From assembly GCA_048941265.1 (NCBI GenBank), contig JBHLNT010000026.1, positions 1 to 37,028 of the forward strand: a stretch of 37,028 nt of DNA, written 5' to 3'. The notes beneath the pieces are model-generated. The model saw only the letters and a program-made list of their open reading frames with translations, was not told where the DNA came from and did not search any database. This DNA comes from Promethearchaeota archaeon. Lineage in GTDB: Archaea > Asgardarchaeota > Lokiarchaeia > Sigyniarchaeales > SOKP01. Position 1 is the first letter of the stretch, and each line of letters opens with the position of its first letter. Positions 672-15,046 of the stretch are shown here, piece by piece. Made by a program: the position numbers and the translations under genes.

Positions 672-1799
672 GTGGATTTTAGGTTAATGGAACATAAAAA
701 TTTATCATTAGAATACGATAAGAATTTAATTAATAAAATTTTGGATGATATTAATATGAGATATATCATCCTATTTCAATACATTATTAGAAATGATTTA
801 TTTGCAGATTTAAATGATAAAAATTTAATAGAATCTTATGAAAGAATTTTAATCCTGGATGATATTTTTAAAGGAAATGTCATTAATTTTTTAGGCGAGT
901 ATCAAAATTTTATTGAAGTAGCGATAGACTTAGGATTATTTAAGAATATAAGAACTTTAAGAGAGTTTGAACAGAAAGATAATGACTTTATTTTGAAAAT
1001 GGGTGAAGAAACAATAACCATCGAAAAAAATACCATAATGACTCCTGAAGATACATTATTTCTCATGATAACTAAAAAATTTAAGTTTCTCACTAGAAGA
1101 AATTTTAACTTGGCCCTCACAAGGTTAAAAGGAGTGAGATGTGAAATATCCAGCACAATTCATTCTTTTATCTTTGAAATTGGACAAGGAGATTATACCT
1201 TAGCAGATGATCTCTACTACATTTTAGATCAATACGGAAATATTTATCAAGCAATTAAAATAGAAATAACAATTGAGGGATTCTATCAAAGATTTGAAGA
1301 GATTGCCAAAAAAGTTGATGAACTTATTGAAATATTTGATCCTGCTTTAAATAGTAAGAATATTGTTAACAATATACATAAAACAATTGAACAAAATAAA
1401 GACATTTTTGAATACCTGAAAGAACAGAAAGTAAAATTATCTGACAAGTTTAAAAGTAAGGAAGATATAAAGGATACTCAGGTTTCTAAAGAATGGAATT
1501 CTAAACTGATGCATTTATTAAAATTGAGGTTTCAAATTAAAAGTATTGATAAAAAATTATTAGAAATTAAACAATACTATTCGGGGAAAAATAAAAAATA
1601 TGGTTATTTAGAATTTATCGAAAAAGTTTCATTTAATGAAGATAACATAGTAGATGAGATACAAAACTCATTATTAGCTTTAAGAAAAGAACTTATTGAT
1701 ATTAATAATGAATTTTCAAAATTAACGAAAAAGGAGATAAAACTTCTTAATTTAGATTATGAGAGATATCTAATAACGAGCAGTGATGATGAAAAGTGA
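672..1799 (+). CDS. Hypothetical protein: putative winged-helix segment followed by long helical/coiled-coil C-terminal half (operon gene 1; ATG at 687 is an alternative start)
   Basis: 375-aa ORF. LTRRNFNLALTRLKG...FIFEIGQGDYTLADD resembles a wHTH recognition helix plus wing, and heptad-rich helices follow. Its stop overlaps the next start (GTGA, 1796-1799). Confidence 0.75.
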   Translation: MDFRLMEHKNLSLEYDKNLINKILDDINMRYIILFQYIIRNDLFADLNDKNLIESYERILILDDIFKGNVINFLGEYQNFIEVAIDLGLFKNIRTLREFEQKDNDFILKMGEETITIEKNTIMTPEDTLFLMITKKFKFLTRRNFNLALTRLKGVRCEISSTIHSFIFEIGQGDYTLADDLYYILDQYGNIYQAIKIEITIEGFYQRFEEIAKKVDELIEIFDPALNSKNIVNNIHKTIEQNKDIFEYLKEQKVKLSDKFKSKEDIKDTQVSKEWNSKLMHLLKLRFQIKSIDKKLLEIKQYYSGKNKKYGYLEFIEKVSFNEDNIVDEIQNSLLALRKELIDINNEFSKLTKKEIKLLNLDYERYLITSSDDEK

Positions 1800-2773
1800 A
1801 ATGTCCCGCATGTAATATTGAAATGGAACAGTTAGTTGCTGGAATTTATCAGTGTCCTCAATGTAAAAAAATAATGAAAGAAGAGGCTCAAGAGAAAGGA
1901 AAAGAGACACAAAAAATCGCTGAAGAAGGCCTTTTTCAAGAAGGAGAATATTTTCACAAGAGCGCTAGTTTAAATAAACAATACGAAATAGCCGAAAAGG
2001 GCATCACTATTTCAAAAACCCCAAACCGCTGGTTTTCGGTTCTAATCTGCCATAGTCCACTATTACAAAATGAAAAATATATTCGGTTATCATGGTGGAA
2101 AAAATCGTTTTATCAACATGCGGGTATGTTTAAAATTTATGATAAAGAAGTTCTTAAAAACACAATTAGAAGTTTAGAAAAAATTGACAATGGATTTGAT
2201 GATCTTTGGACCTTTCGTGGAAAATTTAGGAGAAGCAGTCCAAAGACTGAAGAACAACAGGAAAAAGAAAAGAAGTTAGATATTATTAAATATCGTATAT
2301 TAGAAAATCGAACTTGCCCGAAATGCCAGAAAAAAATGGATAAAATGAAATCCCATTATGAATGCCAACATTGTGGAGAAATTGTAATATTAGAAGGATA
2401 TAATCAACCAATTTTTAATATTGCTTCTTCTGATTTGGATATAAATTTTCAGGGAGATTTTCCTATTAACTTTTATATGCCTGTGGCGGGAATAACTGTA
2501 AAATGGTTAATGGGAGAATGGAAAGCATTAGTAGTCATATATTCGAAAGATAATCCGAATAAAAAGTGGCTTAGGTTTTATTGGTGGAATCGAGATTTAC
2601 AAAACATATTAAAATATGGACAGCGAGAAATGGGAGAAGGTACACAATTGGGGTGGAAAGTTCAAAAAGGAGTATCATCACCCAATCTTTATGATAAAAA
2701 ATTATTAAAACCATTAATTGATGCGCTTAAAAAAGTTGCTGAAGAATTAAATTGGGATATTGATAACAATTAA
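1796..2773 (+). CDS. Protein with two tandem [Zn-ribbon + PC4/YdbC-like ssDNA-binding fold] units (operon gene 2)
   Basis: Zn ribbons CPAC..CPQC and CPKC..CQHC. Each is followed by a repeat sharing GIT[IV]...W....K[YW][IL]R[LF]xWW...[IL]YDKx[VL]LKxxIxxLxK, which matches the beta-beta-beta-beta-alpha pattern of PC4-like domains. Confidence 0.7.
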   Translation: MKCPACNIEMEQLVAGIYQCPQCKKIMKEEAQEKGKETQKIAEEGLFQEGEYFHKSASLNKQYEIAEKGITISKTPNRWFSVLICHSPLLQNEKYIRLSWWKKSFYQHAGMFKIYDKEVLKNTIRSLEKIDNGFDDLWTFRGKFRRSSPKTEEQQEKEKKLDIIKYRILENRTCPKCQKKMDKMKSHYECQHCGEIVILEGYNQPIFNIASSDLDINFQGDFPINFYMPVAGITVKWLMGEWKALVVIYSKDNPNKKWLRFYWWNRDLQNILKYGQREMGEGTQLGWKVQKGVSSPNLYDKKLLKPLIDALKKVAEELNWDIDNN

Positions 2774-2793
2774 AAAATAAGTTGTTGTAAATT

Positions 2794-3936
2794 ATGATGG
2801 AGAATCAAGATCGCACATGGAAAGAATTATTAGAAGAGTTCATAAAAGGTATTGACAAAGCGATTGAAGAATTAGAAAAAAGGGATGTTGAAAATATACC
2901 AGGTGCCAAACAAGCCCTATTACAACGATTAAGTAATATGAAACTTCATTTTCCAACAAATGACGGAGAAATTTTTATAAGATCAATTAACGATAAAATT
3001 CAAAACGCGTTCTTTCCTGATACTCAAGATTTTACAGAAGCATTCGAAAAAATATTAAAATCTAGAACTCATGAACAAGATTTTATTATAAATGAATTAC
3101 TTAATGGTTTTGTTACTTCTAAAGCAAAAGCAATAGCATTAGGGACACAAGGACCAGTAATAGATCGAATGGTTGAAGCCTTTAGTAAGCGAAATGATTT
3201 TCATATTGTGGATCATCAATTTTTTGCGATGTTTGGAGATCCAAATAAACCACGTTCCTATATTAAAAAGCAACTGCAGGAATTGGTAAATATGTTTGGC
3301 TTAATCTCAAAAGAACTCGTGGTTGAAAAAGATAAAAGAACCAGTGAACGAAAAGTTTATACATTTTATACGTTTCCCGATGAGATCTTAAAAATTTTAG
3401 AAGAAAAGTACATTGAGATCGATGATGAACTTGGTCACGCGTATGTTTCGGAGGAATTTGACAGGACGGTATTTATCTGTATGTTTTTAGCAAATGTCGC
3501 AATTAATAGGGATGATCTTGAAAAAATAGGCGGCTCTTATACTATCAATGGGATATGTGCTATATTTGCTCTTGTACTACTACTAAGCTTTATGCCAAAA
3601 CTTTCTGTTGACGAGACTAATCCCATATTAAGAGATCAAACCTTCAATGAACAAAATATGAGTGTAATTCCAAAATCTTGGATGATGAAACAAGTGTTAG
3701 AGCCTTTGTTTGAGCCTCTTATTAAAGTTGTTGGCTATAGACTCGGTGGTGGCCTATGGTACTCAAAAATTATTGATAGTGAAATTAATAAAAAAATTCA
3801 TACCCAAATTCGTTTTCTCCTCCGTGATGTAAATAAATGGGTGCTTGGTCAGCTAGTGCGTGTCGAAATTCCGATCTTTGTCGAGATAGCTAATATATTC
3901 ACCGAAATTACTATAGGGACAAATGCGCAAGAATAA
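2794..3936 (+). CDS. Hypothetical protein with a putative central winged-helix domain (operon gene 3)
   Basis: 380-aa ORF. RSYIKKQLQELVNMFGLISKELVVEKDKRTSERKVYTFYTF fits a wHTH helix followed by a beta-hairpin wing. The C-terminal half is helical and hydrophobic. Confidence 0.7.
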   Translation: MMENQDRTWKELLEEFIKGIDKAIEELEKRDVENIPGAKQALLQRLSNMKLHFPTNDGEIFIRSINDKIQNAFFPDTQDFTEAFEKILKSRTHEQDFIINELLNGFVTSKAKAIALGTQGPVIDRMVEAFSKRNDFHIVDHQFFAMFGDPNKPRSYIKKQLQELVNMFGLISKELVVEKDKRTSERKVYTFYTFPDEILKILEEKYIEIDDELGHAYVSEEFDRTVFICMFLANVAINRDDLEKIGGSYTINGICAIFALVLLLSFMPKLSVDETNPILRDQTFNEQNMSVIPKSWMMKQVLEPLFEPLIKVVGYRLGGGLWYSKIIDSEINKKIHTQIRFLLRDVNKWVLGQLVRVEIPIFVEIANIFTEITIGTNAQE

Positions 3937-3948
3937 TCATAATTTAGG

Positions 3949-5247
3949 GTGGTAAAAATAAGTAGCAGAAGAGAAAAATGGACAGATTTGCTGCCAAGGT
4001 ATATGACGTTCATTAGTCATATGAGACCTATTCTTAGAGAGACCCGGAGAATTATAATGGATTTAGACGCCGATTTACTCTTAGATACAGAAGTATTAGA
4101 TAAAATTCGGCAAGAAGAAGAAAAAAGAAATATTAGGAAAGTTAGAGCACTTTCAGAGTTTTCTGCTATGTATAGGTCTAATGTGTATGAGATAATTAAA
4201 GATTTTATAGTCAAATACCGTGATAAAATTCCCATCATAGATATTAAGGATTATATTATTGACTTTCTCCATGAATCAGTTGATGCGTTAAGTATTTTAC
4301 AAAATATCACTAATCCTGATCAGAGAAATTTGGAAAAGACCTATTTATATCGTTTAACCAAATTTATTGAAGATTTAATCTTTTCAAGGGGAAACAATAT
4401 TAAACTTATCTATGAAAAATTATTAGATCATGCTCCGAAGTTTTATGAATGTCAGCGGCATCTATTAATGCCTCATACTTATTATCGTGAAAAAATCGAA
4501 AATCCTGATTTTTTTGTGATTCCTGGAATATCTCCAAGAGTGTACCAAATTATTAATAATATAACTTCTCTTTACAATTTAGATCCTAATTTTGGAAGTT
4601 TCCCTGAAAAAGAAAACTATGAAATTCCAATGATTTTAACAAATGAAGTTTTTTTACCTTATATTGATTCAATTGCTAACGCGGAAGAAGAATCTATTGA
4701 AACTATCGCAGAACGTATTGGTCTTCATATTTTGGAGGGAATTTTTTTAGCTCCACAAAAAGATTCGGTTGAAATTTTCTTGGAGCATAATTTTTTACGT
4801 GAAAATAAACAATCTGATGGTTCCATAAGACTTATACCTCAATTTAGCAATGAAACGTTAATTCTCTACTACTTAGCTTTTGCCTCATTTAGGAGGGGAT
4901 TTTTATCAAAGGAATTAATTAATTGGATTTCCATGAATTTTGCATTTTTAACGTATATGGGTATATTAAAATGGAAATTAAGCGACGAAAACATATTTTA
5001 TGCAATTTTTAAAGATTTACAAACAAATGAAAAAGTTTTACCCTATTTAATGAAATTAATCTGTTTTCCTAATTATCTGGGAATAGATAAGATGAAAATT
5101 CGAGATTCCGTCCAATATAGGAAAGAGATTTTTAATTTCATTGGCAGTCAAATTGATAATTTAAAAGACTTTATAGAAGAAATTGCAATTTACTGCGAAA
5201 CAATAGAAGAAAAAAAGAATAAATACTTTAATAATAAGAAGAAATGA
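3949..5247 (+). CDS. Hypothetical all-helical protein, possible wHTH element (operon gene 4)
   Basis: 432-aa ORF with GTG start, 12 bp after the previous gene. SVEIFLEHNFLRENKQSDGSIRLIP resembles a helix-plus-wing element. No family recognised. Confidence 0.7.
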   Translation: MVKISSRREKWTDLLPRYMTFISHMRPILRETRRIIMDLDADLLLDTEVLDKIRQEEEKRNIRKVRALSEFSAMYRSNVYEIIKDFIVKYRDKIPIIDIKDYIIDFLHESVDALSILQNITNPDQRNLEKTYLYRLTKFIEDLIFSRGNNIKLIYEKLLDHAPKFYECQRHLLMPHTYYREKIENPDFFVIPGISPRVYQIINNITSLYNLDPNFGSFPEKENYEIPMILTNEVFLPYIDSIANAEEESIETIAERIGLHILEGIFLAPQKDSVEIFLEHNFLRENKQSDGSIRLIPQFSNETLILYYLAFASFRRGFLSKELINWISMNFAFLTYMGILKWKLSDENIFYAIFKDLQTNEKVLPYLMKLICFPNYLGIDKMKIRDSVQYRKEIFNFIGSQIDNLKDFIEEIAIYCETIEEKKNKYFNNKKK

Positions 5248-5253
5248 TAAAAA

Positions 5254-6363
5254 ATGAGTAATGTAAATAATGAAAAAGAATTAAAAATAACTTATACCGA
5301 TGATGTGATTAAGGAACGTCTTAGTAAATATGGTGCGGTATATTTACCTTCAGATATCAAAGAATCTGTCGATGATATTATCGGAAATGAAGTTAAAAAA
5401 GAAATTTTAGATGATTTTTTCAAAGCTTTACTGAAATATGAACAATTTACCGAACAGCTAAAAAATTCAAAATTAACTCCAAATTTGACAGTTTTGCTGT
5501 ATGGACCTCCAGGAACAGGAAAAACTTCTTTAACAAGAGGATTTGCAAAAAAATATAATATTCCAATTTGTATTGTAGAATCCGATAGACTTGTATCTCC
5601 TCTATTGGGGGACACTATTAAAAACATTAGAGGTGTAGTAGAATTAGCTGCGGATATTGCAAAAGATAGAGGGGCTTTTGTACTTTTTTTTGACGAAATT
5701 GATGCGATTGGTTCTGAAAGATCGAACATTCATGAAGTGGGAGAAATTAAACGTGCCGTTATTTCATTTTTACAAGTTATTGATAGAGTAAATTATGAAG
5801 GTCTACCCTTGGCAATTTTTGGCGCCACTAATCATCAGCACCAATTGGATTCAGCAATATGGCGCCGTTTTACCTTTCATCTCCATTTTGATTTTCCGGA
5901 TTTTCATTTAAGAAAAAAAATTATTGAATCATTTATCAATAAAATTAAAAATGCTAAAATTGGAGTTGATGATTCAATTTTTAATCAATTAAATGATGAG
6001 TATGGAATATATCAAAAAATTTCTAAAGATTTAGATACCAAATTAGGACATAAAGTATCTGAATTTGATGATAATACATTGCGAAATGAAATTAATAAAA
6101 AACATAAAACCGGAGGATTATTAAAATTAACATATGGATATTCCGGCTCGGATATCGAAAGAGGAACTAGAGTGGCTTTATTTAAAGCAATGCACACGGA
6201 GCTTTTAACATACGACCTATTTTATAATTCATTAGAACTTGTTGGTGGAACGGCAATCCATGTTGAAAGACAAGATTTATTAAGTAACGTACGATCCTTC
6301 GAAAGAAAACAAAATCAACATCGTGTTCAAAACAGTAAATCCTCTGGACCTCCAGAAATATAA
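5254..6363 (+). CDS. Classical-clade AAA+ ATPase, single AAA module, no MIT or Cdc48 N domain (operon gene 5)
   Basis: Walker A GPPGTGKT, Walker B FFDEIDAI, second region of homology ATNHQHQLDSAIWRRF with Arg fingers, and a GYSGSDI lid motif. Confidence 0.93.
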   Translation: MSNVNNEKELKITYTDDVIKERLSKYGAVYLPSDIKESVDDIIGNEVKKEILDDFFKALLKYEQFTEQLKNSKLTPNLTVLLYGPPGTGKTSLTRGFAKKYNIPICIVESDRLVSPLLGDTIKNIRGVVELAADIAKDRGAFVLFFDEIDAIGSERSNIHEVGEIKRAVISFLQVIDRVNYEGLPLAIFGATNHQHQLDSAIWRRFTFHLHFDFPDFHLRKKIIESFINKIKNAKIGVDDSIFNQLNDEYGIYQKISKDLDTKLGHKVSEFDDNTLRNEINKKHKTGGLLKLTYGYSGSDIERGTRVALFKAMHTELLTYDLFYNSLELVGGTAIHVERQDLLSNVRSFERKQNQHRVQNSKSSGPPEI

Positions 6364-6399
6364 ATTTAATCTCTTAAAAATTATAATAAATAGATATAA

Positions 6400-7458
6400 T
6401 TGGAAAAAATGAATAAGCCTCAAATATTTGATTTAGAAAAAATTAAAGAATTAACCAATCCTATTGAAGAACTCCAAGGAAATGTGTTTGAATTCCAAAA
6501 TAACTTTACCAATTATACTAAATATAAAGAAAAAGAAATTTCAGAGCTCCCATTTAATAAAGACTTTTCAAATCAGATCCAGACTGTTACTCAAATGCTT
6601 GAAGAAATAAGCAGGAAGCTGATTAAAATTTCAAATTTAAATATCAATAAGTATCTAATTTTTCAAGATAATTTAATTAAGAAATATAAAGACTCCTTTA
6701 AGGAAAATCTTAAAAAACTGAAAATAGATCAAACGAAAACAAAGAAAATTGGAATATTTCTTATTGAAAATCGAAAAATTAGCAAAATAATTGATAAATC
6801 TTCATATATATATGCTATTGAACTAAATCAATGGCTAGATTTATTAGAATCTTTAAAATCAAATTCACTTTTTCAATCATCAATCAATCGATGTAAAAAA
6901 TTTTACAATTTATTAGTGAGAAAAAAACTCACAATGGAATTAAACAAAATTCCTGAAGATGTTGATCCTGTTTTAATCAGTGATTTCAAAAAAGCATATT
7001 TAAAAAATCCCGAATTTACGTTTAAAGAATTTCTGCAAATCATTGAAAAAAAATTAACCGAAGAAGAATTAGGTAGTCGAAGAATTATTATTGAACAAAC
7101 TAAGGAAAAAGAAAAATTAAAAGAATTAAAAAAAAAGCAAGAAGCGCAACGCCAATCATATGAAGATTACTTGCGATTGTCTGATAAGGAATTCGAAAAA
7201 ATGAGACGAAAAAAAAAAAGAAAAAAACTATCGGAGCTCACATCAAAACAAGAATTGTCAAAACAAATACAAATAAGTGAGGAAATTTCTGAAAAAATTG
7301 AAAAATTTAAGTCTAAATTTGAAAATAGTTTTGAAGAAAAGTATTTAGTGCAAAAAGATGACGATATAGATCCACTCGATATAATCAGGGAAAGAAAAAA
7401 ACAAAAAGATGAAGAATATAAAGACCATATAAAAAAATTCAAGAATGTAAAAGAATAA
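6400..7458 (+). CDS. Highly charged coiled-coil hypothetical protein (operon gene 6)
   Basis: 352-aa ORF, K/E-rich helices, basic patch KMRRKKKRKK, C-terminal DPLDIIRERKKQK. Confidence 0.72.
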   Translation: MEKMNKPQIFDLEKIKELTNPIEELQGNVFEFQNNFTNYTKYKEKEISELPFNKDFSNQIQTVTQMLEEISRKLIKISNLNINKYLIFQDNLIKKYKDSFKENLKKLKIDQTKTKKIGIFLIENRKISKIIDKSSYIYAIELNQWLDLLESLKSNSLFQSSINRCKKFYNLLVRKKLTMELNKIPEDVDPVLISDFKKAYLKNPEFTFKEFLQIIEKKLTEEELGSRRIIIEQTKEKEKLKELKKKQEAQRQSYEDYLRLSDKEFEKMRRKKKRKKLSELTSKQELSKQIQISEEISEKIEKFKSKFENSFEEKYLVQKDDDIDPLDIIRERKKQKDEEYKDHIKKFKNVKE

Positions 7459-7465
7459 GACGTGA

Positions 7466-9082
7466 TTATCCATAAGCTCAAAAGGATTTAAACTTGTAGT
7501 CGGAGATAATGAAATCTCCATTCATGATAGATTCACATTAATTCTAGGTAAATTTAAAAAAGATATTTTAGAAACAATTCAACAAGATGAGGTTTTTGAG
7601 ATTATAACAGATTATAACTTAATTCCAATTGAGAATTTTATCGCATTATTTAAAGATTCCTCCCAAAAAGATCTGAATTTAAATAAATCCATTAAATTGC
7701 TTACCATCATTAAAGATACTCAAAAGGTAATTAACATTAACTCAAACCTTATCTTGCGTTCTAAAAATCTGGTCCAGTCAGTAGTCTCTATACTTAAATA
7801 TAATTCACTACTTAAAAAAAGAGGACTTCTTGAAAAAGAAAAAAAATTATCAGAGAGTAAACAAATTTCAAGTGAACTAACAGCGAAAAAAGATTTACTA
7901 ACTAAACTAAATGAATCTTTAATAAATAACAAAAAGAAATTTAATTACACCAAAGAAGATTTTCTCTATTTAAATAACAAACGAACTCAAATTCTTAATA
8001 CTATAAATAATTATAAGGAAAAAATTCGAGAATTAAATAAGAAAAAAAAAGATTGCTTTAATGAAATTAATAAAATAACGAGATATATGAGCGATCCAAC
8101 CCAGAAAAGCAAATTAGAAGAATTAAATCTCGATTTGAGTGATAATAAATACAATTCAAAAGCCGGTGCTATTAAATCCTTACAAAAACAAGCTAAAGAA
8201 CATCAGTATGAAATCAATCAACTTAATGTAAAAATTCATGAAACGCAATTAAATTTAGACCAAATTAATCCCAGTTTTCAAACTATAGAAGCAGATTACA
8301 ATTCTTTAATTAAGATGATTGAAAATGATGAAGCAGGCATAAACAAAATTAAAACAGAATTAAAGAATGAATTAAGTAGAAATGAGGAGTTTAAAGATTT
8401 TGAGATTTCTGCTTATAACTCTTTCAAATCAAAACAGGAAATTGAAAATGAAATTACAGAAGTTTCGAATCAATTAAAGTCAATTATAGGTAAAACTACT
8501 TATATAGATCCTGACCAACCAGAAAACCTCTCGAAAATTATAAAGGAATTCACAGAAATTAATGAATCCCTATTAAAAGAAGATACTAAAGATCTTTCGA
8601 TACCTTATGAAAAAGATGAAATTATTGACTGCTTAGAAAATTTTAGAAAAGTAGAGTATTTATATGGCGATCTTGAAGAGTTATTAAATATCTTTTTGGA
8701 ACAAATTAATTTAGAAGTGAAATTTCAAACTGCTATCAGTGAAGATTTTAATAATTTCTTTATAAAGACATCTTTCTTGCGATCAACTAAAGAAAATATT
8801 AGTTTTGAAGAATTTACAACACCAGAAAAAATTTATTTCGTTTTAATATTTTCTCTATCAATAAAAATCATATTACAGACAAGATACATTATTTTTTCTA
8901 ACTTATATCTTCCAAGCGAATATAATAGAAGAGGGTCTATATATCGAACAATTTCTAAAATTTTACCTATTTTTGAGCAAGAAAAAAGCTTGAAAAACTT
9001 CAATCTCATATTTCTTATCTCAAATTTAGAAATGAAAAAAAAAATTGAAAATATAAAAGTAATAAATATTGAGGAAAATTAA
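7466..9082 (+). CDS. Short SMC/Rad50-like coiled-coil protein with degenerate ABC-ATPase head (operon gene 7); true start lies upstream of the 7697 TTG
   Basis: The frame is open from 7466, 77 codons before 7697: LSISSKGFKLVVGDNEISIHDRFTLILGKFKKDILETIQQDEV, which matches the SMC N-terminal pattern KGFK...FTxIxG. A long coiled coil follows. The C-terminus ISFEEFTTPEKIYFVLIFSLSI...YIIFSN...NLIFLISN aligns with LSGGEK / hhhhDE / hhhhTH. Confidence 0.7.
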   Translation, partial: LSISSKGFKLVVGDNEISIHDRFTLILGKFKKDILETIQQDEVFEIITDYNLIPIENFIALFKDSSQKDLNLNKSIKLLTIIKDTQKVININSNLILRSKNLVQSVVSILKYNSLLKKRGLLEKEKKLSESKQISSELTAKKDLLTKLNESLINNKKKFNYTKEDFLYLNNKRTQILNTINNYKEKIRELNKKKKDCFNEINKITRYMSDPTQKSKLEELNLDLSDNKYNSKAGAIKSLQKQAKEHQYEINQLNVKIHETQLNLDQINPSFQTIEADYNSLIKMIENDEAGINKIKTELKNELSRNEEFKDFEISAYNSFKSKQEIENEITEVSNQLKSIIGKTTYIDPDQPENLSKIIKEFTEINESLLKEDTKDLSIPYEKDEIIDCLENFRKVEYLYGDLEELLNIFLEQINLEVKFQTAISEDFNNFFIKTSFLRSTKENISFEEFTTPEKIYFVLIFSLSIKIILQTRYIIFSNLYLPSEYNRRGSIYRTISKILPIFEQEKSLKNFNLIFLISNLEMKKKIENIKVINIEEN

Positions 9083-9604
9083 GTGAGTATGATGGAAAGT
9101 TCTAAACCTGAAGATATAGTAAAAACTATATCAAAACTTATTTTGACAAACCAGCAGAAAATGATTAGAGAAGAAGATCTTAGGAATCTAAGCGAAAATT
9201 TTGATTTTGATCAAATTATAAATGAAGTTTATCTAAATCTAAATAAGATTGGTTTCGAACTAATAAAAACTAAATTTTTAGAACAGAATTACTATGTCCT
9301 CATTACTGGAGGAAAAGATGATAATATTACTCCTAGTCAATATGGCACTTTAGCCTTAATTTTGGCACTTAGTAGGGAACTTGATGAAAACGTGAAAATT
9401 GATGATTTAAAAGAAATTTTTTCAAGTATTTGGGATTCTGACATTAAATTTCTACTTGAAAATGATTATTTGCGAGAAATTAATGTAGAAGGTTTAGATA
9501 TTGTTAAAATTACCCCATTAGGGAAAGCTACTATGAAGAATATTATTCAAAATTTACAATTAAAAAACTTACTTGATATTTTTAAAGAAAGTAAATCAGA
9601 ATAA
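9083..9604 (+). CDS. Tandem winged-helix protein, KITE-like (Nse1/Nse3/ScpB/MukE-type) (operon gene 8)
   Basis: 173 aa. WH-A is FDQIINEVYLNLNKIGFELIKTKFLEQNYYVL. The linker ITPSQYGTLALI resembles the ScpB LS..ALETLAII helix. WH-B is IKFLLENDYLREINVEGLDIVKITPLG. Its GTG abuts the upstream TAA. Confidence 0.7.
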   Translation: MSMMESSKPEDIVKTISKLILTNQQKMIREEDLRNLSENFDFDQIINEVYLNLNKIGFELIKTKFLEQNYYVLITGGKDDNITPSQYGTLALILALSRELDENVKIDDLKEIFSSIWDSDIKFLLENDYLREINVEGLDIVKITPLGKATMKNIIQNLQLKNLLDIFKESKSE

Positions 9605-12966: not shown

Positions 12967-13854
12967 CTATAACTTACGAACTTTATATCTATTATAATAA
13001 ATAAGATAAGCTGCTAAAATTCCACCTAGATCTGGAATATAATAAAGAACATATAATGGATAAAAAAGCGTATAAATTAAACCTGGAATTAGCCAGATTA
13101 AAATTATAATTAATAAGAAAGTTCTTCCCTTAACCCTAATTGGGATAAAGTACATCAAACCTGTCATTTTACGATTATAATAAGGAAATATGGTAAAGGA
13201 AAGGATTCCGAATATACCCCCCCACGCTAAGCCAACATAAACACCATAAGTTTCTATAGGATAATATAAATGAAATAAAAGCCGTAATAAGATATATATC
13301 ATCGCTGAAAAGAGGGCACATGATATATAAAGATTTATTAAAAATTTAGTCCCATATTGCATTTCTAAATATCTGGTCATATTATATAAAAAATACATCA
13401 TAATCATTAAGATGAATAATCCCAATAATCCACCAGAACTGATAAATAAAGCTGTAAACAAAGTATAATAAGTATAATAATATACAAGTCCTTGAAGACT
13501 AAGGAATATATAGCGCTCAAGTCCTATAAGACTAAAAATAAAAGCCACTATAGAAAAAATCACAATCATAAAAATTAAAAATTTAGTCCCTTTAAATTCT
13601 GTTTTAGATGGTCCATAAGTTCTTTGGAAAATCCTATATTCATATTGAGGTTTTTTAGGTCTTTTTAATGGTTCTTCCCGATATCTTATACTCGGTTCAC
13701 CTGAAGAGGTTGGAACAACTGAGATATGCTTTAATTCAAATGTACATTCATGATTTTCAGGTAAGCGGTGTTTTTTACAAAATGTACCTCCGCAGTATTT
13801 ACATTTGAATGGCAAATACCCTATTTCTTCTCCGCAAAATACACAAAATGGCAC
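12967..13854 (-). CDS. AN1 zinc finger fused to rhomboid-family membrane domain lacking catalytic Ser/His (pseudoprotease)
   Basis: AN1 finger CVFC...CKYC...FCKKHRLPENHEC and about 6 TM segments. The GxSG position reads GLAWGG and the AHLGG position reads PDLGG. Confidence 0.75.
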   Translation of the reverse strand: MPFCVFCGEEIGYLPFKCKYCGGTFCKKHRLPENHECTFELKHISVVPTSSGEPSIRYREEPLKRPKKPQYEYRIFQRTYGPSKTEFKGTKFLIFMIVIFSIVAFIFSLIGLERYIFLSLQGLVYYYTYYTLFTALFISSGGLLGLFILMIMMYFLYNMTRYLEMQYGTKFLINLYISCALFSAMIYILLRLLFHLYYPIETYGVYVGLAWGGIFGILSFTIFPYYNRKMTGLMYFIPIRVKGRTFLLIIILIWLIPGLIYTLFYPLYVLYYIPDLGGILAAYLIYYNRYKVRKL

Positions 13855-14032: not shown

Positions 14033-15046
14033 TTAACTGGCATTACCTTTCATGCTTTCGGGTACGTATAACGAGGTTTCAATTGGAGCGTAAATCAAAG
14101 AGTAAGTGATTATTAACATTAGTATTAATAAACCAGCTAAAAGAAAATATACCGATTTACTCCATTTAAAAATATTTTGCCCATCTAATATCCCAATTGG
14201 GATCATGTTAAATAAGCCTAACATAAAATTTAAAGCTGCAGCATAACCAATAAATAAATTCAGCGGAAACAAATCTTTAGGCATTCCTATAGATATAATT
14301 AATAGGATGATGCCATAAATTAAATTAACAATCGGACCAGCAGATTTACATAAACCTGTTTTGCGATCAATCTTATCTAAGCCCAAAACAACGACAGCAC
14401 CAGGCAAGGCTAATATGGGTAAGCTAACTGAATTTGAAAGTAAAGACCAAATACCTGCTATCAATCCGAAAACCGTTAATATCATACCGAAGGTAAGTAA
14501 TCGAAATTTCGTTTGAAGTCCAAAATGTTTAGCTACTTGGCGATGACCAAATTCATGAAATAGAAACGCTGTTGTATAAAATCCTGCTAATAAAAATATT
14601 GCCCAGGTTAAATTTAACCGAATTAATTGAGGATTAAAAAATACAATTAACCCTATCAAGAAAATTAAACTTGCACCAATTAATAAATGTAAAAATTCAG
14701 ATTTATATGGAAATAAAATACCCTTAAATTCAATTCCTGAGCCAGGATCGAAAGCATTCTCAGGGATGTGTCTTTCTTGTCGATACCAGTTAAAACTTCC
14801 ATCGGTAGTTCCACGTATAGTTGAATCAGCAGCTTGTTGTTCGGGATATCGCTGCTGATATGAGGGGACCTCCCTATATGTAGATTCTGGAGCTTGAATT
14901 TGTTGAGATTTTAAAGATTCTATTACAATATTGCACTCATGGTTTAATGGATCTTTATGTAATCCACAATAGTTTTGACCACATTTTTCGCAATGATAAA
15001 CCTCGTTTTGAGGAATTTCCTCTCCACAATGATAGCATAATGTCAT
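14033..15046 (-). CDS. AN1 zinc finger fused to M50 (site-2) intramembrane metalloprotease
   Basis: CYHC...CEKC...YCGLHKDPLNHEC finger, with HEFGH, AGPIVN and FNMIPIGILDG M50 motifs. Confidence 0.88.
   Translation of the reverse strand: MTLCYHCGEEIPQNEVYHCEKCGQNYCGLHKDPLNHECNIVIESLKSQQIQAPESTYREVPSYQQRYPEQQAADSTIRGTTDGSFNWYRQERHIPENAFDPGSGIEFKGILFPYKSEFLHLLIGASLIFLIGLIVFFNPQLIRLNLTWAIFLLAGFYTTAFLFHEFGHRQVAKHFGLQTKFRLLTFGMILTVFGLIAGIWSLLSNSVSLPILALPGAVVVLGLDKIDRKTGLCKSAGPIVNLIYGIILLIISIGMPKDLFPLNLFIGYAAALNFMLGLFNMIPIGILDGQNIFKWSKSVYFLLAGLLILMLIITYSLIYAPIETSLYVPESMKGNAS

Follow-up and report, generated by a model that had tools for sequence, protein, structure and literature searches.

What could an SMC (structural maintenance of chromosomes) protein do once all of its ATPase motifs are gone, and is such a protein a relic or a working component of the cell? 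The question is raised by a gene, designated here g7, which occupies positions 7466..9082 of the plus strand in contig JBHLNT010000026.1 (37,028 nucleotides, analysed over its full length and referred to as the window) of the Promethearchaeota archaeon assembly GCA_048941265.1. What defines SMC complexes is that ATP drives the engagement of their heads, and the Asgard archaea, to which this organism belongs, are the prokaryotes discussed as closest to eukaryotes. The gene is a stop-to-stop reading frame and the seventh of eight close-packed, colinear plus-strand genes (g1 to g8, 672-9604). A first-pass annotation had proposed that it encodes a hingeless mini-SMC with degenerate ATPase motifs, serving as a structural or regulatory subunit. 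The results presented below suggest that g7 is probably the ATP-independent, SMC-fold core of an SMC-kleisin-KITE-like complex encoded by its own operon, a reading which draws chiefly on predicted structures.

The description of g7 as a hingeless mini-SMC devoid of ATPase motifs holds for the whole family. Motif counts in a 110-sequence alignment of g7 homologues revealed no Walker A ([AG]xxxxGK[ST]) and no signature motif ([LFY]SGG) in any sequence (0/110 each), while Walker B (hhhhD[DE]) is absent from its site in all 110, with no acidic pair there, and occurs elsewhere in the protein only once (1/110). Every string quoted in the first-pass annotation was confirmed (LILGKFKK spans residues 25-32, FTTPEK 450-455, IIFSN 475-479 and LISN 517-520), and each of them lies within a conserved replacement. 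At the P-loop site (7529..7561, RFTLILGKFKK) all that remains of GxxGxGK[ST] is G28-K29; the consensus, LI(L/M)GKFKK, is about six residues short, with G28 found in 101/101 and K29 in 98/101 non-gap rows. The signature site (8813..8830) reads FTTPEK, or LTTPEK in the family consensus, and its residues T451, T452, P453 and K455 are identical in 110/110. The Walker B site (8888..8902) reads IIFSN (consensus IxFSN; N479 in 110/110 and S478 in 109/110) and is followed by a conserved stretch, GSIYRT (8933..8950), in which S491 and R494 are present in 110/110. The H-loop site (9011..9031) reads FLISNLE (consensus ISNLE) and has no histidine, with S519 conserved in 109/110, N520 in 104/110 and L521 in 110/110. 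Since these replacements (LTTPEK, IxFSN, GSIYRT, ISNLE) are nearly invariant, they amount to a fixed alternative state, not to decay.

The other well-conserved part of g7 lies at the far end of its coiled coil. No CxxC occurs in the apex region (residues 180-260) of any of the 110 homologues, in line with the earlier remark that a zinc hook is missing. A tip motif, KKxCFxxINKITR (8045..8083, residues 194-206), is found on the ascending side, where K194, K195, F198, I201, N202, I204 and R206 are identical in 110/110, as are I236, Q240 and Q247 on the descending side. Conservation within the protein is highest at the tip of the coiled coil and on the surface of the former active site. The string IQQDEV, initially taken for a remnant of the SMC Q-loop, was rejected as such because of its poor conservation, its Q39 being glutamine in only 64 of 104 non-gap rows (lysine in 26, histidine in 9). 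A low-confidence hhalign row, from which no claim is drawn, sets the FVSQG region of the genome's own SMC opposite g7 residues ~50-65.

The coding sequences tell the same story of a maintained gene. The Nei-Gojobori ratio of nonsynonymous to synonymous substitutions (dN/dS) was computed over 57 coding sequences and ranges from 0.20 to 0.43 among the 40 closest pairs; given the AT-richness of these genomes, dS is probably an underestimate. For the pair formed by the window and locus L001, dN is 0.149 and dS is 0.512 (ratio 0.29). The lowest ratio is often that of the C-terminal head. Hence g7 is under purifying selection of moderate strength, as the first-pass annotation had asked to be checked, and no orthologue with intact motifs, which would have indicated local pseudogenisation, is present among the 110. 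The pseudogene reading was rejected on the conservation of the gene and on dN/dS values below 1. Searching 1.84 billion cluster representatives with a profile of the C-terminal head returned 61 matches at E<=1e-3 (60 at E<=1e-10), all from the family itself, all no longer than 545 amino acids and all but a few short fragments matching at the C-terminus; neither intermediates with live motifs nor longer fused forms were found by this profile.

The distribution of the gene is narrow and dense. With a full-length profile (E<=1e-10), g7 was detected in 117/134 genomes of the window's GTDB family, nearly always as a single copy, and in 0/266 genomes drawn from 32 further families in the phylum, at a threshold which misses diverged copies. 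The better conserved operon member g3 was found in 118/134 genomes of the same family, in 13/14 genomes of another, a sister family within the order, and in 0/252 genomes outside these two families (E<=1e-5); the operon is thus known from a single Asgard order, in two of its families. All three sister-family loci fetched (3/3) display the same eight-gene order, with a gene of 539-555 amino acids in the position of g7. The three counterparts are at most 24% identical to g7, can be aligned with it end to end and lack all of the motifs as well, the P-loop site reading FLQGNYD, IIQGENS and FLKGDCD, the signature site LKRIEK, LPTEEK and LKRVEK, and the Walker B site RFIPIR, VHLYSD and SLIPIE. Since the motifs are missing on both sides, the loss of the ATPase predates the split of the two families, whereas the LTTPEK/IxFSN set was fixed later and in one family only.

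To what fold does such a sequence belong? The AlphaFold2 model of g7, built from the 110-sequence alignment (predicted local distance difference test, pLDDT, 83.2; predicted template modelling score, pTM, 0.56), consists of a head, composed of residues 8-60 and 416-534, and an antiparallel hairpin coiled coil with a predicted length of ~20 nm and an arm of ~140 residues. The N-terminal head half (7466..7678, residues 1-71) comprises three strands (8-28), followed by the shortened P-loop site, two short helices and a further strand (52-54); it is only ~70 residues long, whereas in the genome's own SMC the Q-loop alone is situated at residue 142. The ascending coiled-coil helix (7679..8092, residues 72-209) is modelled in two pieces (72-130 and 136-209). 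It leads to an apex loop of 22 residues (8093..8158, residues 210-231) with a pLDDT of ~50 and no secondary structure, which takes the place of a hinge or zinc hook. The descending coiled coil (8159..8707, residues 232-414) starts with a helix at 232-303 and runs, with three breaks, to residue 414, and the C-terminal head half (8708..9079, residues 415-538) is an alpha/beta domain spanning 416-534.

A Foldseek search of the PDB with this model gave 40 matches at E<=1e-3. The rows listed are SMC, Rad50, JetC, LmuB, MukB and Smc5/6 chains, with a probability of ~1.0, and only 9a6c_A and 9y6s_6k (a ciliary chain) fall outside the SMC types. The top match is Rad50 (7zr1_C, 1.9e-7), others being the Pyrococcus Smc head with coiled coil (5xei), JetC (9qxx, 1.5e-5) and LmuB (9hqu, 1.6e-5). 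In a VIA structure search the rows spanning residues 1-538 are Smc5/6 heads, namely 8wjn_B (Z 12.4), 8hqs_B (Z 11.0, root-mean-square deviation 6.4, 249 residues aligned) and 8t8e_A (Z 10.8, deviation 5.7, 232 aligned). Because these rows cover both ends of the chain, the two termini of g7 form a single ABC-like head in the model, so that the outcome which the first-pass annotation had named as refuting its reading did not occur. The model places g7 no nearer to Smc5/6 than to Rad50, Smc or JetC, their Foldseek E-values differing by no more than two orders of magnitude. Matches of the g7 sequence to an NCBIfam SMC model (28.7 bits against a cut-off of 567) and to the PADLOC models of JetC (2.9e-4) and LmuB (0.011) are confined to the coiled coil and were dismissed as compositional.

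The two genes on either side of g7 are the reason why a complex, and not a solitary SMC-like protein, is proposed. In the following, linkage is given for 71 related loci from species-representative genomes, in which the operon genes are always colinear, missing genes corresponding to loci cut by contig ends. The upstream gene g6 (6400..7458, plus strand, 352 amino acids; 63/71 loci) encodes a predicted kleisin-like partner. Co-folding of g6 with g7 yielded an ipSAE (interaction prediction score from aligned errors) of 0.62 (0.60, 0.62 and 0.65 in individual runs), while none of the three controls exceeded 0.00; in the calibration of the mark used, it was reached by 58/80 solved complexes and by 2/110 mismatched pairs. 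At least 88% of contacts are shared between the runs, and the pLDDT of the partner is 60-66. The confident interface joins residues 5-99 of g6 to residues 81-117 and 353-397 of g7, i.e. to both coiled-coil strands above the head, and also touches head residues 52 and 421-434. In this prediction the N-terminal helices of g6 sit on the neck of g7 just as the N-domain of a kleisin sits on that of an SMC protein. As SMC-kleisin complexes have already been solved, however, passing this mark shows likeness and not binding.

The downstream gene g8 (9083..9604, plus strand, 173 amino acids; 69/71 loci), whose GTG start directly abuts the g7 stop, encodes a protein with two winged helices in tandem and a predicted KITE-like fold (AlphaFold2 pLDDT 82.7). 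All 12 Foldseek matches at E<=1e-3 are to Nse3/MAGE, ScpB (archaeal and bacterial) or Nse1, with template modelling (TM) scores of 0.30-0.40, the best of them being Nse3 (7dg2_C, 1.8e-4) and ScpB (6juv_A, 2.4e-4). The VIA wide search with g8 was not discriminating, as it returned single winged helices of many families (Z 7-9), and Atlas gave weak leads only (MAGE 0.79, DUF4194 0.75).

In the sister family the counterpart of g6 is shorter, with 232-271 amino acids compared with 352 here (L085:7068-7766, L086:6875-7672 and L087:8452-9267, all on the minus strand), and tblastn aligns it to g6 residues ~102 to 276 only. In that family no recognisable conservation is thus left in the N-terminal helices predicted to bind the neck, and such divergence of the N-terminus fits fast co-evolution of g6 and g7. 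One g6 orthologue (L023:8943-9980) has an in-frame TAA at codon 260, which represents either a sequencing error or a broken copy.

Several observations weigh against the interpretation of g6, g7 and g8 as an SMC-kleisin-KITE-like set, the most general being that all three family assignments are based on predicted structures. At the sequence level no link between g7 and SMC proteins emerged: Pfam gave 0 matches at E<=0.01, hhalign of the g7 family profile against the genome's own SMC returned a probability of 0.65%, and the best match among PDB chains (E 0.16) is unrelated. Likewise, 0/33 g6 members match the kleisin families (ScpA, Rad21/Rec8, Nse4) and 0/33 g8 members match the KITE families PF04079 (ScpB) and PF01454 (MAGE) at E<=1; the g6 profile hit only designed coiled coils among PDB sequences, and an Atlas search with g6 gave no usable match. 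The structural evidence has weak points, too. Whole-chain Foldseek TM-scores of g7 are low (0.15-0.22), because the arms point differently. Unrelated coiled coils (PI3K p85, chemoreceptors, Vipp1) reach VIA Z-scores of ~11-12.6, as high as the SMC rows, so that Z alone does not single out SMC, the coiled coil filling the match list. The contact of a kleisin-type C-terminus of g6 with the head cap is absent from the co-fold, in which a single copy of g7 was used and the confident interface ends at g6 residue 99. Finally, dN/dS values of 0.2-0.4 signify only moderate constraint, g6 and g7 being the fastest-evolving members of the operon (mean column identity of 55-57%, against 85% for g3 and 81% for g4).

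If g7 is nevertheless accepted as an SMC-fold core, the loss of its motifs would make an ATP-driven head-engagement cycle impossible, and the protein would therefore act as a static clamp or tether. It may be envisaged as a static scaffold of arms and head that g6 would close or bridge and g8 would decorate, with nucleic acid as its most likely substrate. A possible source of energy is encoded next door. The gene g5 (5254..6363, plus strand, 369 amino acids; 62/71 loci) specifies an AAA+ ATPase (Pfam AAA, 1.9e-25) with intact motifs, including GPPGTGKT, FFDEID and the RR pair. Within PADLOC it comes closest to the defence ATPase IetA (2.3e-57), in a match restricted to the AAA core; the NCBIfam IteA model gives 172 bits, under its cut-off of 510, again over the AAA core (residues 45-236). 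This co-inherited ATPase could supply in trans the energy for assembly, loading, opening, recycling or remodelling of the scaffold, and we put forward the idea that it drives g6-g7-g8 as a tentative one. The suggestion made from sequence, that g7 is a scaffold for the AAA+ ATPase, is consistent with the way in which the gene is strictly linked to that of an AAA+ protein with intact motifs. Both the conserved tip and the former active-site surface, now repurposed, would probably be protein contact sites, used for self-association or for docking of g1-g5. Taken to its full extent, the idea is that an SMC-type ring has dispensed with its own ATPase and left the motor function to a dedicated AAA+ protein, g6-g7-g8 being a passive DNA or RNA clamp handled by that protein together with g1-g4. 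In this form we hold it to be rather doubtful; if true, an AAA+-operated SMC-kleisin-KITE scaffold would be a mode unknown in any domain of life, fixed in an Asgard order that includes Loki lineages.

The same two conserved surfaces also suit an explanation in which chromosomes play no part. The SMC fold may have been recycled as a cytoskeletal, membrane or RNA-handling scaffold, with the head turned into a docking module for an AAA+ machine. The ATP and head-engagement residues which define the action of SMC proteins on DNA are all gone, and the tip and the former active site are conserved as protein-protein contacts would be. Four to five of the operon partners have no known fold or family, and an Lsm-type RNA-binding gene is among the neighbours. 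However, a kleisin-like neck contact and a KITE-fold partner, both predicted, are the signature of DNA-entrapping SMC complexes, and zinc ribbons are present in g2. A non-chromosomal scaffold is, in our opinion, unlikely.

The first-pass annotation also held that g7 could pair with an active SMC encoded elsewhere. Such genes do exist in this genome: contig C159 carries an SMC of 1146 amino acids with GPNWSGKT, FVSQG, LSGG and LCMLDE, and a second SMC-type gene with LSGG and FYIMDE is located at a contig edge (G000:C34:412-2654), ~1.4 kb upstream of a ScpB-type gene. The ScpA Pfam model found no match in the genome, which is 91% complete, so that absence is not implied. The genome thus seems to possess a pair of canonical SMC systems in addition to the motif-less g7, both on contigs other than that of g7 and never beside it, and g6-g7-g8 is an additional set, not the sole SMC system of the cell. 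The part of the original proposal that survives is the structural, non-ATPase role; a partnership with the active SMC of the cell finds no support in the models, because g7 has no dimerising hinge, its operon supplies a predicted neck binder and a KITE-fold protein, and the canonical SMC genes lie elsewhere, one of them beside a ScpB-type gene.

A variant of this proposal would make g7 a regulator or poison of active SMC complexes, which engages their heads or kleisin without ATP hydrolysis. It has a precedent in SMCL-1, an SMC-like protein that, according to the available text of PMC5373644, is missing the hydrolysis residues of the ATPase and binds the condensin SMC subunits of C. elegans, and active-type SMC genes are at hand in this genome. 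Yet g7 retains long arms and a conserved tip, while SMCL-1 is described in the same text as having no coils, and it possesses a predicted neck binder and a KITE-fold neighbour of its own, distant from the canonical SMC genes. Moreover, its head surface residues differ between the two carrier families, whereas the canonical SMC motifs are fixed. A role of this kind seems quite improbable to us. Weaker still, and in our view very improbable, is the interpretation of the operon as a Lamassu- or Wadjet-like anti-virus or anti-plasmid defence system with g7 as SMC-like sensor and the IetA-like AAA+ protein in the effector: the Foldseek matches to LmuB and JetC, a size of g7 near that of LmuB (matched chains of 628-631 residues) and the IetA match of g5 favour it, but g1, g3, g4, g6 and g8 have no PADLOC match, no nuclease or protease effector, LmuA or JetD was recognised, g5 falls short of the IteA cut-off, the PADLOC matches of g7 are restricted to the coiled coil, and the near-universal single-copy presence of g7 in its family, the fixed neighbourhood (Lsm in 67/71 loci, a cobW-like GTPase in 59/71) and the 81-85% conservation of g3 and g4 make a housekeeping pattern rather than a patchy defence island.

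When g7 is regarded as the core of its own SMC-kleisin-KITE-like complex, the closest known systems are Smc-ScpAB, MukBEF and Smc5/6 with Nse4 and Nse1/Nse3. Shared with them are an antiparallel coiled coil carrying a head to which both termini contribute, a predicted neck-binding partner (g6) and a tandem winged-helix partner (g8), the three genes being adjacent. In contrast to these complexes, g7 lacks Walker A, the signature, Walker B, the H-loop histidine and the hinge, and its N-terminal head half is shortened to ~70 residues. Its arms measure ~140 residues, whereas canonical SMC arms have ~340. Furthermore, no head-cap contact of g6 is predicted, g6, g7 and g8 lie outside all three families by sequence, and the three genes are obligately accompanied by that of an AAA+ ATPase and by four more.

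Among the other SMC relatives, LmuB of Lamassu and JetC of Wadjet belong to the top Foldseek matches of g7, and LmuB resembles it in overall length, short arms and the absence of a canonical hinge; g7 differs from both in its vertical inheritance as a single copy in a fixed neighbourhood, in having no recognised effector and in the absence of ATPase motifs. Rad50/SbcC gives the best single Foldseek E-value and shares with g7 a hairpin coiled coil without a globular hinge, but g7 has neither a CxxC zinc hook nor ATPase motifs, and there is no Mre11/SbcD-type nuclease gene in the operon. SMCL-1 of Caenorhabditis, as portrayed in the available part of PMC5373644, is likewise SMC-derived, predicted not to hydrolyse ATP and limited to one lineage; it differs in having neither hinge nor coils and in binding canonical SMC subunits, while g7 keeps its arms, its tip and its own partner genes.

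How the SMC, kleisin and KITE paralogues of Asgard archaea evolved is a matter of current research, as far as can be seen from the accessible parts of PMC8665677 and of preprint 10.1101/2024.01.07.573240. The SMC survey in PMC8665677, according to the portion of its text available, took only sequences with Walker A, Q-loop, signature and Walker B blocks, and surveys of this type would miss the g7 family because they require the Walker and signature blocks. The preprint, in its accessible part, reports a third, Asgard-only kite clade near Nse3, and g8 might belong to this 'third kite paralog' clade. In full-text searches, which did not cover preprint supplements, neither an SMC-like protein lacking the motifs nor the g1-g8 operon was found described for Asgard archaea. 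What seems to be new here, if the models are right, is that the SMC of an SMC-kleisin-KITE architecture is dead and shrunken and has an AAA+ protein as its obligatory partner. Should the motif replacement, the kleisin- and KITE-like partners and the AAA+ linkage all hold, g7 would be a natural experiment on an SMC scaffold without a motor.

The first half of the operon is occupied by proteins more conserved than g7 itself. It opens with g1 (672..1799, plus strand, 375 amino acids; upstream in 54/71 loci), which is of no known family and has no Pfam, PADLOC or NCBIfam match. The next gene, g2 (1796..2773, plus strand, 325 amino acids; 57/71), encodes the protein with zinc ribbons (Pfam Zn_ribbon_6, E 1.9e-5). 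It is followed by g3 (2794..3936, plus strand, 380 amino acids; 58/71), the best-conserved member of the operon, and by the highly conserved g4 (3949..5247, plus strand, 432 amino acids; 60/71). Neither belongs to a known family or matches anything in Pfam, NCBIfam, PADLOC or PDB sequences, and the profiles of g6, g8, g4, g3 and g1 retrieved nothing meaningful from the PDB sequences. The mean column identities of 85% (g3, 35 sequences) and 81% (g4, 26 sequences) have been given above; even to their sister-family counterparts the two proteins are ~50% identical. Such conservation makes it likely that the module is important to the cell, yet it is wholly uncharacterised, and g3 and g4, for which no fold is known, may be its functional heart. 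The spacing between the genes of the operon varies from a 4-nt overlap to 36 nt. Outside it, the gene flanking the operon upstream recurs in 53/71 loci.

A further question concerns the beginning of g7, which has no conventional start codon where one is needed. Its frame of 538 codons is open from 7466, straight after an in-frame TGA (7463-7465), to the stop at 9080-9082, giving a product of ~536-538 amino acids. The earliest ATG, GTG or TTG in this frame lies at 7697, and it is there that gene callers began the protein (P0002, 461 amino acids). Most of the homologues listed (120 of 225 with E<=1e-3), however, have ~540 amino acids and cover 93-100% of the 538-residue query, and the first 77 codons are therefore taken to be coding. 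Of 52 full-length related loci, 23 have no ATG, GTG or TTG in the stretch 6-40 codons 5' of the conserved Gly13. Ten codons before this glycine, ATT is found in 37 loci, ATA in 5, ATC in 3 and ATG in a single one, and in 39 of the 52 a Shine-Dalgarno-like 4-mer lies 4-14 nt upstream of this aligned codon; in loci L036 and L032 an in-frame stop directly precedes it. In the window a GTGAT motif is followed, after five nucleotides, by ATA at 7472..7474, an arrangement common to L001, L030 and L036. On this sequence pattern g7 probably starts at the near-cognate ATA at 7472, 5 nt past a Shine-Dalgarno-like motif, although the conserved isoleucine codon could instead reflect protein-level constraint in loci with an upstream TTG or GTG. 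In loci with a called GTG start four codons upstream, the GTG is situated within a GGAGTGA-like motif and may hence be a ribosome-binding site, not a start.

Two other explanations of the missing start codon were discarded. An assembly frameshift was rejected, as the interval 7387-7630 is free of indels in contigs of three runs from two studies (two of these runs being possibly the window's own source). Recoding of the TGA at 7463-7465 was rejected as well, since readthrough would meet an in-frame TAA at 7448-7450 (located by eye) with no start codon in between. As to expression, there was no RNA run among the nine sequencing runs returned.

The surroundings of the operon are archaeal in character. 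The window is AT-rich (GC content 0.25-0.37), the neighbouring genes include, by Pfam, the Lsm protein with an archaeal Lsm_C domain and an archaeal-type S-adenosylmethionine synthetase, and the named homologues of g7 come from metagenome bins of Promethearchaeota, Lokiarchaeota and Hodarchaeota. Farther downstream, two adjacent minus-strand genes (12967-13854 and 14033-15046) each open with an AN1-type zinc finger. In the latter the finger is joined to a Peptidase_M50 domain, which places a eukaryote-like finger in the context of an archaeal membrane protease.

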